A stretch of 64,000 nucleotides of DNA, taken from the sequence record NC_014792.1. One strand, written 5' to 3'. This document shows, one piece after another, positions 2,771 to 51,092 of this stretch (the stretch's first letter is position 1; each line of letters starts with the position of its first letter). A program made the position numbers and the translations under genes. The notes under the pieces were generated by a model. It had not been told where the DNA came from, searched no databases, and was given only the letters and a program-made list of their open reading frames with translations. This stretch comes from Escherichia phage vB_EcoM_VR7.

Positions 2771-2796
2771 AAAGGTCTCCCGAAGGAGACCAAATT
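2771..2796 (-). terminator. UUCG-tetraloop hairpin with U-run
   Basis: ggtctcc-cgaa-ggagacc on plus strand; minus-strand reading gives stem, UUCG loop and a T-run. Confidence 0.6.
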
Positions 2797-2949
2797 TTAT
2801 TCTACTTTATAGACTTGACCATACGCTATGAAAGTTTCACCTTCCCAGGTCTCACATGTGATTGTTACGAATTCTGCAAACAAAGGTTTTTTCTCTGCCC
2901 AGAGAAAACCGTATTCACCTGTGGCGAGCGTAATCCAGTATTTAGTCAT
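2797..2949 (-). CDS. small hypothetical protein, possible late gene
   Basis: start moved to internal Met (MTKYWITL) with AGGAGA RBS; TATAAATA motif about 40 nt upstream. Confidence 0.35.
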   Translation of the reverse strand: MTKYWITLATGEYGFLWAEKKPLFAEFVTITCETWEGETFIAYGQVYKVE

Positions 2950-2986
2950 ATCGTCTCCTAGTAGCGGGAGAATATTCTCCCACATC

Positions 2987-2994
2987 TATTTATA
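2987..2994 (-). promoter_or_regulatory. T4-type late promoter motif TATAAATA
   Basis: exact TATAAATA on minus strand just downstream of the gp39 stop. Confidence 0.35.
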
Positions 2995-4819
2995 GCGTCG
3001 CATTCATCCAATCTTTGCGCAGCTTCGGTTCTTTACCGAAAAGCATTTCGAACAGTTCTTTCCAGTTGTCAGGTAATTGAACAACTTCGAAAACAGGTTC
3101 GAGCAATACGCGCTTGTACTCGGAATCTTCCAGAGAACCCAGTCCCTTGATATATCTGATGGTATGCTTCGGAAGTTTATCCTTAGCTTCTTCATAATCA
3201 GGGAGAGAATAGAACCATTCTTGTTTATCTTTTAGTTGCGCAATAATAACAGGAGTTTTCACAAAGCGAATACGTCCTTCATGGAACAGCTCCGGCCAGT
3301 TACTGAAAAATGCCAATAACGATGGATAGATACTACCAACGCCATCCACATCCGCATCTGTCATGATAGCGATATTTCGGTAATTCATATTCTCGGCTGG
3401 TTGTCCAATCGTTAATCCAGTAATCGCACACACATCAAAGGCTTCTGCGTTTTTCATAACTTCAACAGCTTTCAGACCCCATGTGTTTTTGAACTTACCG
3501 CGCAACGGATATGCACCTTGCAATTCGCGGTCACGAACCTTGATAAACGGTCCGGTTGCAGAATCCCCTTCGGTTAGGAACAAAGTCGTTTCCAGCTTGT
3601 CATTACCCCATTCGTTGGCCTTGATATGTTTCTGTACCTTGGCCTTTGAAGCTTTCTTATTCGCCTTTGTTTCTGCAGCTTTCTCTGCAGCCAATTTACG
3701 CGCCAATGCAGCTTCGACAATCGGCATAATCAGCGATTCATTTTTCAGAATAGCTTGAGCGATTTTCTTAGCATCAATTTGGATATGATTTCGAATCTCG
3801 CCAGCCGGAGAAGTCAATCGCTCCTTGGTCTGGGAATCAAATCGCATATTGCTCATATCGCGGATGAACATAAGCATGGTGAGGCATTCTTTAACTCGTG
3901 CCTTGGTCACCTCGATGCCTTTATATTTGCGCTTAATTGCTGGCTGAAGGTGTTCACAGATATCATCCATAACACATTCAACGTGGTGCCCACCATTCTT
4001 TGTATGGATGTTGTTAACATAAGTCAGCTGACGGAAACCGTCTGGGCTGGTCGTGAAAGCCATTGATACTGTATCAGTTTCCTGGATAACAACTTCAGTC
4101 CCGAATTGTTTGGAGAACTTCTTGAAGTTGCCATCAACCTTTTTACCATTAAAGGTAAACTGAATATCCGGGTAAACAACCGCAAGAGTCTGCAGACGGT
4201 CCAATGTAATATCCAGATAAATCTGGGACAAACTATTTTCTTCAAAGTGACTAAAGTCCGGAATAAAGATAACAGTTGTGCCTTTACCCTTAGATTTCTT
4301 GGTAGACCAACCTTTGTTTTCCATACCGTTGGAGCAGTTAACAGTAATTTCATTTGCACCATCAGCGGTAATCCCTGTAAACAATACAGAGAAAATATTG
4401 GTCAGAGAAGACCCGACGCCATTCATCCCGCCAGTTTTACGTTCAGCATCATCACCGAAGTTGCCCCCGGCTTTTGGAATAGTCCATGCTGCAACAGGCC
4501 CAGGGATTTGTTCACCGCTTTGGTCGACAACCATTGCTTGTGGAATACCACGGCCATTATCAGAAACTGAAATCTGATTATCTTTAATTTGAACATCAAT
4601 TTTATTGGCAAATTTAAAACTGGTGCGAATTGCTTCATCAACAGAGTTATCGATAATTTCATCAATCAGTTTTACAATACCAGGAACATAGCTTACGGAC
4701 TTATATTCACCAAACAAGAATCGCTCATGCGCTTCATTTGAACTGGAACCAATATACATCCCGCTGCGTTTTTTGATGTGTTCAATATCGCTTAAAACAC
4801 GAATTTCATTCTTAATCAT
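2990..4819 (-). CDS. 39: DNA topoisomerase II large subunit (single continuous 39+60-type ORF)
   Basis: 609 aa; GyrB-like GHKL motifs EIIDNSVDEA, DNGRGIP, GGMNGVGSS; uninterrupted ORF. Confidence 0.9.
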   Translation of the reverse strand: MIKNEIRVLSDIEHIKKRSGMYIGSSSNEAHERFLFGEYKSVSYVPGIVKLIDEIIDNSVDEAIRTSFKFANKIDVQIKDNQISVSDNGRGIPQAMVVDQSGEQIPGPVAAWTIPKAGGNFGDDAERKTGGMNGVGSSLTNIFSVLFTGITADGANEITVNCSNGMENKGWSTKKSKGKGTTVIFIPDFSHFEENSLSQIYLDITLDRLQTLAVVYPDIQFTFNGKKVDGNFKKFSKQFGTEVVIQETDTVSMAFTTSPDGFRQLTYVNNIHTKNGGHHVECVMDDICEHLQPAIKRKYKGIEVTKARVKECLTMLMFIRDMSNMRFDSQTKERLTSPAGEIRNHIQIDAKKIAQAILKNESLIMPIVEAALARKLAAEKAAETKANKKASKAKVQKHIKANEWGNDKLETTLFLTEGDSATGPFIKVRDRELQGAYPLRGKFKNTWGLKAVEVMKNAEAFDVCAITGLTIGQPAENMNYRNIAIMTDADVDGVGSIYPSLLAFFSNWPELFHEGRIRFVKTPVIIAQLKDKQEWFYSLPDYEEAKDKLPKHTIRYIKGLGSLEDSEYKRVLLEPVFEVVQLPDNWKELFEMLFGKEPKLRKDWMNATL

Positions 4820-5529
4820 TTCGTTTCCTCATGTTTGTTTAAGTATTTTATCGCATTTTTTAGCGAAGCAATATTGTCTTTAAACATTCCTAGACCGGTA
4901 TTGCACTGTCTACACAAAATGCCCCGAACATGTCCACCTTTATGACAATGGTCAACATTTTTACGAATAACAGAATCAAATTTAATACCACATATTTCGC
5001 AGGTCTCCGTCGTCTTAAGAAGAGACTTAATTACTCTATTAGGAGCCATTATGCCACGAGCTTTAGAAAATGGCCTATCCAATGCATTAAAATCTCGAAC
5101 ATAATTTTGACAGGTTTTAGAACAATAACGAGAAGTCCCATTTACAGCTTCATAAGGTTTACCACATCTTTCGCATAAATGTGTTTTAACATATTCGCCA
5201 CACCCAGCACATTCTTTAGAGCAATATTTATGATATCCTCTAACAAAAGTGTGATAATTAACTTTATTGGTGCATACCGCTGAACTACATAAAACAGGCG
5301 AAGTTATATCATTTAATACTCTATAACAAGCCTCATTTAGCGGAGACTGATTTCTCAAGCCTCCTTGGTTGGTTTTAGATATTTCTATTAATTCATCATA
5401 GAACTTTTGGTTATCATCCCAAAATTTTATATCACGTTTTAAAAGATTGCCGTTTAATTTGTTTTTGTTCTTAGTTAAAAGATTTTCTTCAATAAATTGT
5501 TTTAAGTTCATGGAGGTATTATAAGTCAC
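4816..5529 (-). CDS. putative HNH / endonuclease VII-family homing endonuclease
   Basis: C-terminal DHCHKGGHVRGILCRQCNTGLG matches the gp49 His-Me finger zinc motif; Cys-rich N-terminus; track start appears to be GTG with no clear RBS; overlaps gp39 start by 4 nt. Confidence 0.55.
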   Translation of the reverse strand: MTYNTSMNLKQFIEENLLTKNKNKLNGNLLKRDIKFWDDNQKFYDELIEISKTNQGGLRNQSPLNEACYRVLNDITSPVLCSSAVCTNKVNYHTFVRGYHKYCSKECAGCGEYVKTHLCERCGKPYEAVNGTSRYCSKTCQNYVRDFNALDRPFSKARGIMAPNRVIKSLLKTTETCEICGIKFDSVIRKNVDHCHKGGHVRGILCRQCNTGLGMFKDNIASLKNAIKYLNKHEETK

Positions 5530-5537
5530 ATATTTTA

Positions 5538-5562
5538 AAGCAAAAAGGCCCGAAGGCCTTAT
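5538..5562 (-). terminator. UUCG-tetraloop hairpin
   Basis: aaggcc-cgaa-ggcctt, followed by a T-run on the minus strand. Confidence 0.55.
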
Positions 5563-5819
5563 TCAAATCGAATGGTTGAATTCTTGAACAACAATCCAGA
5601 ACAAACAGTTCCTTTGACCTGTTTACCGGTCGGACCCACTGCTGTAAAACCAGTACGTTGGAAGTCATCTTCAGAACACCCAAACAAACTATACCCAGTG
5701 ATTTGGATTTGCTCATAGCCGCTTGCATCCAATACACGAACAGCATTATCTGCATCAGTACAACCAGCCAATGAAACTGCCAAAAATAGCGCGGCAATAG
5801 AACGATTAATATATTTCAT
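5559..5819 (-). CDS. putative lipoprotein
   Basis: 86 aa; signal peptide with lipobox LAGC. Confidence 0.55.
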   Translation of the reverse strand: MKYINRSIAALFLAVSLAGCTDADNAVRVLDASGYEQIQITGYSLFGCSEDDFQRTGFTAVGPTGKQVKGTVCSGLLFKNSTIRFE

Positions 5820-50356: not shown

Positions 50357-50550
50357 TATGCAGTCCTGTAATCAATAATTTCGTCAAGGAACATATCCAA
50401 TGCTTCCAGAGCATCAGATACCTTTGCTTCTAATTCTTTACCACCGTCAAGCGATGGGGACCAATGTGTAAAGTCAATTAGTGCTTCATCAGCTTCACGA
50501 ATTGCTGCAACTAATGCAGAGATTCTCTTTGCTTGCTCCAAAGTAATCAT
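50356..50550 (-). CDS. hypothetical protein
   Basis: 64 aa. Confidence 0.4.
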   Translation of the reverse strand: MITLEQAKRISALVAAIREADEALIDFTHWSPSLDGGKELEAKVSDALEALDMFLDEIIDYRTA

Positions 50551-50553
50551 ATG

Positions 50554-50790
50554 TCACCAGTATTTGTTAATGGTAGAAATTAATTCTTGGACTTGAGTAT
50601 TTTTCAGTTTACACCCGCAACTTTTTAATGTTTCTTTAAAAAGCTCAACATCTTTAAGCTCGTCCTTTTCCAGGCGGATTCTGTATCCCCTGTAATCAGC
50701 AAATATACTTCTGTCATCAAATATCTTAATTTCAAGAATATGATTGTTGGTTTCATATTCTAATGAAACCATTGTATTTGTAAGTTTCAT
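50554..50790 (-). CDS. hypothetical protein
   Basis: 78 aa. Confidence 0.4.
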   Translation of the reverse strand: MKLTNTMVSLEYETNNHILEIKIFDDRSIFADYRGYRIRLEKDELKDVELFKETLKSCGCKLKNTQVQELISTINKYW

Positions 50791-50993
50791 TATTCCACCA
50801 CATATGATAATGAGAAAATTGCTGATGAAAGATGAGTAGCATCTTCTTCACACAGTTCAAATGGAGCTTTCTGCAAGAGTTCAACCACTTCTTCATCAGT
50901 GGCACTGTCCATAAAGATTGCATAATCATTAAGATAGATAACAACCTCATCACCAGTATTAACTGCATCAATCTTGATGTTCTTAATTCTCAT
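50790..50993 (-). CDS. hypothetical protein
   Basis: 67 aa; first gene after an early promoter cassette. Confidence 0.45.
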   Translation of the reverse strand: MRIKNIKIDAVNTGDEVVIYLNDYAIFMDSATDEEVVELLQKAPFELCEEDATHLSSAIFSLSYVVE

Positions 50994-51022
50994 TGTATTC
51001 TCCTCAGTAGTTGATGGGATAA

Positions 51023-51051
51023 TAGTACACCCTTTTGATGAGGATGTAAAC
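51023..51051 (-). promoter_or_regulatory. early promoter cassette
   Basis: TTTACA-N17-TACTAT-TATCCCATCAACTACTGAGGAGAATACAATG. Confidence 0.5.
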
Positions 51052-51059
51052 CCCTAAAT

Positions 51060-51092
51060 GAAAAAAGGTCCACCCGAAGGCAGACCTTTTGA
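51060..51092 (-). terminator. imperfect hairpin with cgaa loop core
   Basis: aaaggtc...gaccttt flanked by A/T runs. Confidence 0.4.

Follow-up and report, generated by a model that had tools for sequence, protein, structure and literature searches.

UUCG-capped hairpins between genes in the early region of Escherichia phage vB_EcoM_VR7 resemble the C(UUCG)G hairpins and terminator-promoter cassettes of T4-like phages

The UUCG tetraloop was originally discovered in the intercistronic hairpins of bacteriophage T4. The C(UUCG)G hairpins of T4 intercistronic regions are reportedly the subject of Tuerk et al. 1988 (PNAS 85:1364) and are said to be summarised in Miller et al. 2003 (MMBR 67:86). 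According to a later article, the intergenic regions of T4 are particularly rich in hairpins of the form (X)nCUUCGG(Y)n (PMC8948821, citing Tuerk 1988). The same loop is frequent in T4 terminators and stem-loops (PMC1702504), and CC-UUCG-GG recurs in T4 hairpins, where it is regarded as a terminator or an RNA stabiliser (bioRxiv 10.1101/2022.08.31.505936). Two further described systems combine a stem-loop with a promoter, namely PeSL, whose stem-loops matched the rrnB T1 terminator in a reporter assay (PMC2839356), and the PmSL cassettes with a Mot box (PMC4122927). In an engineered system, a UUCG cap placed on a terminator cut its leakiness (PMC3905868). Here we analyse recurrent intergenic hairpins with this loop in a stretch of 64,000 nt of Escherichia phage vB_EcoM_VR7 (NC_014792.1), called the window below, with positions counted from its first letter. 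With a probability of about 0.85, they are C(UUCG)G hairpins of the T-even kind that act as intrinsic terminators or attenuators, shield the 3' ends of mRNAs as well and are set in terminator-promoter cassettes of the PeSL/PmSL type.

A megablast of positions 20000-32000 gave 93-98% identity to the T4-like coliphages VR25, VR26, VR20 and SP18. The window shares with the annotated VR26 genome (Gaprivervirus, Tevenvirinae) the colinear order rIIA, 39, dexA, dda, modA/B, soc, 56, 61, 41, uvsX, 43, regA, 62, 44, 45, 46, 47, 55 and nrdC.x. The window covers the early/replication region of a T4-like coliphage belonging to the VR7/VR26 group and runs from rIIA to the genes for internal proteins. Nearly all of its genes lie on the minus strand, so that a plus-strand cgaa corresponds to UUCG in the mRNA; all hairpins and promoter-like sites are given below as minus-strand RNA or DNA. 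For comparison, the first 36-50 kb of VR26, T4, RB69, RB49, JS98, CC31 and S16 were used, which together with the window make eight genomes.

A preliminary description of the window had placed GC-rich hairpins with a plus-strand cgaa loop at eight positions, and each of these positions holds one, either perfect or containing G·U pairs. The chance baseline was obtained from 200 dinucleotide shuffles, in which perfect tetraloop hairpins with a stem of at least 6 bp were counted. Eight such hairpins with a plus-strand CGAA loop were observed, while the shuffled sequences contained 0.07 on average (maximum 2). The opposite orientation, with a plus-strand TTCG loop and a stem of at least 6 bp, was found nowhere in the window, and antisense UUCG hairpins passing the same filter were absent from all eight genomes. 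When G·U pairing on the minus strand was allowed, the site at 51063-51090 was recovered as a 12-bp stem; on the plus strand, its two G·U pairs would turn into A·C mismatches, and it is therefore a structure of the sense-strand RNA. All nine hairpins of the window, eight of them intergenic, have the C-G closing pair and thus the extra-stable C(UUCG)G form on the minus strand. The proposed check of the free energy (dG) of each stem gave -8.6 to -16.1 kcal/mol for the bare hairpins, with stems of 6-12 bp, in agreement with stable structures, and the z-scores of the hairpins with their flanks ranged from -1.5 to -4.4 relative to shuffles. UUCG is the commonest loop among the stable sense-strand hairpins of the window (9, followed by GAAA with 4) and caps 7 of the approximately 17 that also carry a T-rich tail. 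No Rfam covariance model reached its gathering score on either strand of the whole window, which is expected because terminator hairpins are short.

The hairpins occupy a narrowly defined position with respect to the genes. At all eight intergenic sites, the hairpin starts between -2 and +5 nt from a minus-strand stop codon; these stop codons are those of 39.1, soc, 41 and 45, of a small open reading frame (ORF) that follows gene 39, of an orf47-like ORF downstream of regA, and of two ORFs to which no function is assigned. With spacers 50-120 nt long, stop-adjacent placement in every case would not be due to chance. An A-run extends the stem on its 5' side at most sites. Flanking U-runs had been called usual, which holds for six sites with 5-7 U in the first 8 nt past the stem; if the borderline hairpin at 28116 (4 U) is counted, seven of the eight tails are U-rich, and the one at 30289 departs from the rule with a single U. 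A promoter had been noticed immediately after some hairpins, and indeed a promoter-like site follows seven of the eight, within about 5-40 nt. It is of the early type, TGTACA/TTTACA-N17-TAnnnT, after the hairpins at 2774, 21176, 46992 and 51063 and of the Mot-box type after those at 5545 and 14806, whereas a -10 element alone follows 28116 and no promoter-like site follows 30289. The early pattern TGTACA-N16-18-NATNAT has 14 matches in the window against 0.9 expected, and the MotA-type middle pattern 11 against 3.0; some matches to each lie directly 3' of hairpins. The succession of stop codon, A-run, GC-rich stem, C(UUCG)G cap, U-run and new promoter is how an intrinsic terminator or attenuator insulating successive transcription units would be arranged.

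The hairpins are deeply conserved. At orthologous junctions, the 75 nt that follow the stop codon were folded in each genome. After soc, the UUCG loop is found in the window, VR26, T4, RB69, JS98 and S16, with UUCU in CC31; after regA (or orf47/43.1) and before gene 43, it is present in the window, VR26, T4, RB69, JS98 and CC31, with UCCG in S16. The 45/44 junction carries UUCG in the window, VR26, T4 and CC31 and UACG in S16, and the site after 39.1 carries UUCG in the window, VR26, T4, JS98 and RB69. After gene 41, the loop is shared by the window, VR26, RB69 and JS98, while T4, CC31, S16 and RB49 have other hairpins there. The small ORF before rIIA.1 is followed by a UUCG hairpin in the window, VR26, CC31 and S16, built on three different stems. 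Because stems differ at the same junctions, compensatory change is indicated. When 21 distinct hairpins were aligned on their loops, 97.3% of the pooled cells were paired, a percentage that is inflated because the best hairpin after each stop codon was picked as input; the conservation of loop and position is independent of that choice. Double-sided changes occur in 51 cells, compared with 13.5 ± 3.4 after shuffling, compensatory changes affect six of seven pairs, and the C-G closing pair is kept in 20 of the 21 hairpins.

The preference for this loop has a limited phylogenetic range. Six Tevenvirinae genera contain 3-9 UUCG hairpins per 36-64 kb, whereas RB49 (Krischvirus), also a coliphage, has one and prefers GAAA. 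We set aside for covariation the 80 gp45-anchored IMG/VR loci (592 kb), since almost all of them belong to distant environmental T4-likes, and they informed lineage specificity only: UUCG caps 9 of their 417 sense hairpins, level with GAAA and GCAA, i.e., without any preference. By these counts, the UUCG preference follows lineage, not host. Taken together, the strand asymmetry, the sense-only G·U pairs, the stop-codon placement, the U-tails, the conserved loop with covarying stems and the downstream promoter-like sites support the initial proposal of a selected RNA element on the minus-strand transcript.

The closest counterparts of these structures are the T4 C(UUCG)G hairpins, with which they share the loop, the C-G closing pair, the sense orientation and the intergenic position after stop codons. 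T4 has its hairpins at the same junctions, i.e., after soc (15303-15324 in T4 coordinates), between 45 and 44 (31899-31914), between regA and 43 (29952-29969) and between 39.1 and 39 (5381-5398). The stem sequences and the genome differ, and gene 41 is followed by a UUCG hairpin here and by a different, long hairpin in T4. Judged by sequence, the hairpins of the window agree with the T4 intercistronic hairpins in every defining feature and lie at orthologous sites. The type is already known, matches descriptions of T4 dating back to 1988 and is conceptually nothing new. PeSL and PmSL (Arbiol 2010, PMC2839356; Comeau 2014, PMC4122927) likewise consist of a stem-loop that immediately precedes or overlaps a promoter, sigma70-like early or Mot-box, with a Shine-Dalgarno sequence (SD) and ATG behind it. 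They, too, are repeated, partly conserved intergenic units; the indels that adjoin them have counterparts beside some of the hairpins here, and the nt-1 stem style A3-4G3-loop-C3T3-4 resembles the AAAGGG..CCCUUU found here. The PeSL papers, however, make no mention of a UUCG loop (0 occurrences). Their -35 element is TTGACA or TTTACW rather than (G)TGTACA, and they are located in hyperplastic regions, whereas several hairpins described here lie in the conserved replication core (41, 45, regA/43). With the intrinsic terminators of E. coli, the hairpins have in common a GC-rich stem of 6-12 bp, a tetraloop, a 3' U-tract, often a 5' A-tract, and the location past a stop codon. They differ in being unusually near the stop (-2 to +5 nt) and in that one lacks a U-tract; besides, they are known here from sequence. 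By sequence, most sites also fit both the intrinsic terminators and the PeSL/PmSL cassettes. The take-off stem-loop of T4 gene 60 (T4 2834-2857) has the same CC-UUCG-GG tip, but it lies in a coding gap and promotes ribosome bypassing, and no hairpin of the window is in such a context. Gene 39 of the window is a single uninterrupted ORF of 609 aa (2990-4819), which matches the fused 60plus39 gene of relatives in size.

E. coli RNA polymerase transcribing the GC-rich inverted repeat would produce a fast-folding, very stable UUCG-capped hairpin followed by a U-tract, and Rho-independent termination, probably partial (attenuation), would result. At the 3' end of a released or processed RNA, the hairpin would block 3'-to-5' exonucleases and so stabilise the upstream message. 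Fused to the promoter of the next block, either early sigma70 or MotA-dependent middle, it would form an insulated terminator-promoter cassette, and such cassettes may double as joints for gene gain, loss and replacement. Termination, stabilisation and processing are activities that we infer for these hairpins. In the annotation of T4-like phages, the hairpins could serve as marks of the 3' ends of transcription or stability units, and together with the adjoining early and middle promoter motifs they offer a map of early-region operons and gene-swap joints.

Several points weigh against this reading. The U-tract is weak at 28116 and absent at 30289, and hence not all of the hairpins are canonical terminators. 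In generic terminator scans, the number of terminator-like sites overall exceeds that in shuffles only modestly (20 vs 15.4, 19 vs 14.3 and 25 vs 13.1). A ribosome terminating at the nearby stop codon would cover the 5' arm of the stem, which could lower termination in vivo, and the pairing percentage in the alignment is inflated, as mentioned above. Neither Term-seq or 3'-end maps of T4 nor such data for this phage were found in the literature searched. The lineage-specific loop preference and the tight stop-to-stem spacing also leave room for a more elaborate role. The UUCG loop may be selected beyond stability, as a Tevenvirinae-specific recognition or kinetic element, or the stop-abutting hairpins may be translation-gated attenuators, in which the ribosome melts the 5' arm and read-through follows; we consider such additional functions doubtful.

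It is also unlikely, in our opinion, that the hairpins act solely after transcription, as barriers to 3' exonucleases and as end-points left by RegB/RNase E processing, defining stable segments of polycistronic transcripts. The 45/44 junction is where this explanation fits well. The hairpin AUGGGGC-UUCG-GCCCCAU (30289-30306, minus strand; 7 bp, dG -12.3) begins 3 nt past the stop codon of gene 45, which encodes the sliding clamp, and precedes gene 44. Because it lacks a U-tract, it is not a canonical terminator. Moreover, genes 45, 44, 62 and regA must be co-expressed, as is established for T4, and for this reason complete termination within 45/44/62/regA is unlikely. The hairpin is followed at once by a candidate processing site, GGAGUACAAAG (30278-30288, minus strand), near the RegB/S1 consensus GGAGRAYARAA (PMC1702504), and RegB-type cleavage may take place there. 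The weak tail at 28116 and the stabilising role that the T4 literature cites for CUUCGG hairpins (PMC8948821; bioRxiv 10.1101/2022.08.31.505936) point in the same direction. However, an exclusively post-transcriptional role does not agree with the classic A-tract/GC-stem/U-tract layout at six of the eight hairpins. A downstream block needs a promoter of its own only if upstream transcription is stopped or attenuated, and equivalent PeSL stem-loops terminated strongly in reporter assays (PMC2839356). We thus retain termination or attenuation combined with 3'-end protection for the hairpins in general, whereas the 45/44 hairpin is more likely a processing or 3'-stability site, or a weak attenuator, which would tune gp45 relative to gp44/62. 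Acting as a stability cap after processing or attenuating weakly, it would set the ratio of 45 to 44/62 expression.

Another way to look at the inverted repeats is as DNA: they could be recombination joints, cruciforms or protein-binding palindromes serving modular shuffling, with the RNA hairpin being incidental. The preliminary description had placed the hairpins at block boundaries, and the comparison of the window with VR26, in which breakpoints were located by local BLAST and alignments, supports this in part. A 203-nt insertion relative to VR26 and T4 (window 28145-28347) lies exactly between the regA stop codon and the hairpin at 28116, which is 9 nt from the indel boundary. It carries a 75-aa ORF (28139-28366) homologous to orf47 of JS98 (RB32 ORF047c type), and with or without the insertion the hairpin before gene 43 follows the last stop codon. 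A replacement relative to VR26 begins at 46988, at the base of the hairpin at 46992. At the 2774 site, VR26 keeps the flanks and the loop but has another stem throughout, and its hairpin there has the same sequence as the one of gene 41. Some stems are found unchanged at more than one junction, namely AAGGACC..GGUCCUU both at gene 41 and at the small-ORF site, and GGACUCC..GGAGUCC both at soc and at the small-ORF site, which suggests copying between sites. Apart from the breakpoints at 28144 and 46988 beside hairpins and the one at 19593 at a promoter cassette, the others are away from hairpins, and five of the eight hairpins have no breakpoint; thus, block boundaries and hairpins coincide at some sites and are unrelated at others. 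The link of the hairpins to modular shuffling seems real but partial.

Recombination at such cassettes has been proposed in the PeSL papers (PMC2839356, PMC4122927), and the swapping of a stem between close relatives, the indel and replacement boundaries beside two hairpins and the recurrence of the same stems at separate junctions speak for activity at the DNA level. A DNA palindrome, however, gives no reason for an asymmetric loop in a single orientation (9 versus 0 here, and 0 antisense in eight genomes), and G·U pairs, which are A·C mismatches on the other strand, would not be tolerated in it. The stop-adjacent position and the U-tails point to transcription. Since a role in recombination is compatible with a role in RNA but leaves the loop unexplained, we regard a function confined to DNA as very improbable. 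An origin of the hairpins by chance, or from the composition of an AT-rich genome with patches rich in GC, is effectively refuted by the shuffles (0.07 vs 8 observed) and by orthologous conservation over six genera, even if the coding hairpin at 48550 looks like such a coincidence, and copies of one REP-like or other single mobile element can be rejected since the stems are too diverse and Rfam has no match in the window.

The hairpin at 48550-48565 (minus strand), which the preliminary description had not listed, is the single UUCG hairpin within a coding region. Its 6-bp stem spans codons 7-12 (G-Y-F-G-S-H) of a gene for an NrdC.11-like nucleotidyltransferase. VR26 encodes the same NrdC.11-like peptide with 6-7 clustered synonymous differences that abolish the hairpin, and the next 42 nt are identical. 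Because synonymous codons remove it in VR26, it is not a conserved RNA element; it was rejected as a functional member and probably stands outside the system. The synonymous differences are concentrated in an 18-nt stretch at the 5' end of the gene (window 48545-48600 compared with VR26 47640-47710). A homing endonuclease gene, mobD, is inserted approximately 30 nt upstream in VR26, and T4 also carries mobD there, while the window is without it. The clustered differences may represent a homing-endonuclease target-site polymorphism.

The remaining intergenic sites follow the layout described above, all on the minus strand. At 2774-2791, the hairpin GGUCUCC-UUCG-GGAGACC (7 bp, dG -12.0) begins 5 nt past the stop codon of a small ORF (2797-2985) that lies behind gene 39, and its tail is UUUUUAUU. 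It precedes an early-type promoter-like TGTACA-N17-TAAGAT (2736-2764), a member of the enriched pattern family, which is followed by an SD and ATG at 2716-2729. The hairpin AAGGCC-UUCG-GGCCUU (5545-5560; 6 bp, dG -8.8) overlaps the stop codon of the 39.1-like ORF (5559-5819) and has the tail UUUGCUUU. A sequence resembling a MotA-box middle promoter, TGCTTTA-N12-TATAAT (5518-5542), starts 2 nt past it. Located 2 nt past the soc stop codon, the hairpin AAAGGGAACC-UUCG-GGUUCCCUUU (14806-14829; 10 bp, dG -15.1, tail UUUGCUUUU) is followed by the MotA-box-like TGCTTT-N12-TATAAT (14780-14803), which is looser than the consensus and lies upstream of an mrh.2-like ORF. The MotA-box consensus and spacing were taken from PMC2988021.

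The hairpin AAGGACC-UUCG-GGUCCUU (21176-21193; 7 bp, dG -10.0, tail UUUUAUUUU) begins 1 nt past the stop codon of the helicase gene 41, and the early-promoter cassette downstream of it, TGTACA-N17-CATAAT (21129-21157), belongs to an 81-nt repeat whose other copy is at 46920-47000. At the latter site, the hairpin AAAGGACCC-UUCG-GGGUCCUUU (46992-47013; 9 bp, dG -14.2, tail UUUAUUUU), 3 nt past the stop codon of the ORF 47017-47313, precedes an early-promoter cassette with the same elements, TGTACA-N17-CATAAT (46946-46974), recognised both as a repeat and as a pattern match and followed by the SD GGAGAAUAAAAUG. The 12-bp stem with two G·U pairs, AAAAGGUCUGCC-UUCG-GGUGGACCUUUU (51063-51090; dG -16.1, tail UUCAUUU), lies 3 nt past the stop codon of the ORF 51094-51477. 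The early-promoter cassette after it, TTTACA-N17-TACTAT (51022-51050), has the conserved leader CCCATCAACTACTGAGGAG and belongs to the repeat families D1 and D3. Upstream of gene 43, the hairpin AAAGGGAC-UUCG-GUCCCUUU (28116-28135; 8 bp, dG -10.9) lies 3 nt past the stop codon of the orf47-like ORF 28139-28366, between regA and 43, and has the weak U tail UGUAGUAU. Its -10-like TATAAT (28105-28110) is 5 nt downstream, and T4, RB69 and JS98 all retain the motif (G)AGUAUAAU. The possibility that the DNA of the hairpin (GCTTCG) provides the MotA box of a gene 43 promoter was rejected: in T4, the GCTT core is 2 bp too far upstream of the -10 element (spacer of 15 where 11-13 is allowed), and the window has ACTT instead of GCTT.

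The cassettes also form repeats with one another. In families D1-D6, D9 and D10, segments of 28-81 nt occur in up to 9 copies. Family D10 unites the units at 21103-21183 and 46920-47000, with 84% identity over 81 nt that include the proximal hairpin arm. The early promoters constitute a repeat family with the conserved leader …TATCCCATCAACTACTGAGGAG… (D1-D6, D9) and a layout of a -35-like (G/T)TGTACA, N17, (T/C)AT(A/C)AT and a conserved leader ending in CCCATCAACTACTGAGGAG. The members of this early-promoter cassette family, all on the minus strand, are located at 7180-7208, 8259-8287, 11623-11650, 19544-19594, 20733-20761, 21129-21157, 38565-38593, 46359-46387, 46946-46974, 51022-51050, 54938-54966, 60651-60679 and 62505-62533. 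Two segments of the window, 40757-41445 (with a 226-aa ORF at 40779-41459) and 19594-20403, are absent from or replaced in VR26. The boundary of the latter block, of approximately 800 nt, coincides with the early-promoter cassette at 19544-19594.

Stem-loops with other loops are built into promoters on the minus strand at 20748-20769, 38579-38600, 25318-25335 and 34687-34713. In AAAGGGGGUGUACACCCCCUUU and AAAGGGGUGUACAAGCCCCUUU, the TGTACA -35 element sits in the loop or in the 3' arm; ACGGCAAUGGAUUGCCGU, just past the gene 43 stop codon, separates a GTTTACA -35 from a TATTAT -10 element; and upstream of gene 47, an 11-bp hairpin is followed by the MotA-type TGCTTTATAA...TAAAAT. These non-UUCG promoter stem-loops match other PeSL/PmSL subclasses. 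Between the UUCG hairpin and the SD of gene 43, a small hairpin with an 8-nt loop, AGUC-AAUCACUC-GACU (28074-28089, minus strand), aligns with the described translational operator hairpin of T4 gp43 (PMC3014915); its loop has UCAC where T4 and RB69 have UAAC. The SD regions of the early cassettes (46904-46916 and other leaders) read GGAGAAUAAAAUG, identical to the T4 RegB/S1 consensus GGAGAAUAAAA, which suggests that RegB-type inactivation of early mRNAs may occur in this phage too.

Two further repeats were noted in the distal part of the window. The 39-nt segment D8, in four copies between 56989 and 57912, reads ATGAAAACTTATCAAGAATTTATTACTGAATCTGCTAAA on the minus strand (MKTYQEFITESAK) and occurs at the 5' end of each of four small ORFs lying next to one another. 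It resembles the capsid-targeting sequence conserved at the N termini of T4 internal proteins, and the region 56989-57912 is probably an internal-protein gene cluster. Repeat D7, of 43 nt, occurs in four copies at 62799-63576 with a spacing of 207-291 nt; on the minus strand, it ends with AAGGAAATAAAATG (SD and start codon), which is preceded by a conserved TTGGGTGTCCTCCTCTTACGAATGCT-like segment.

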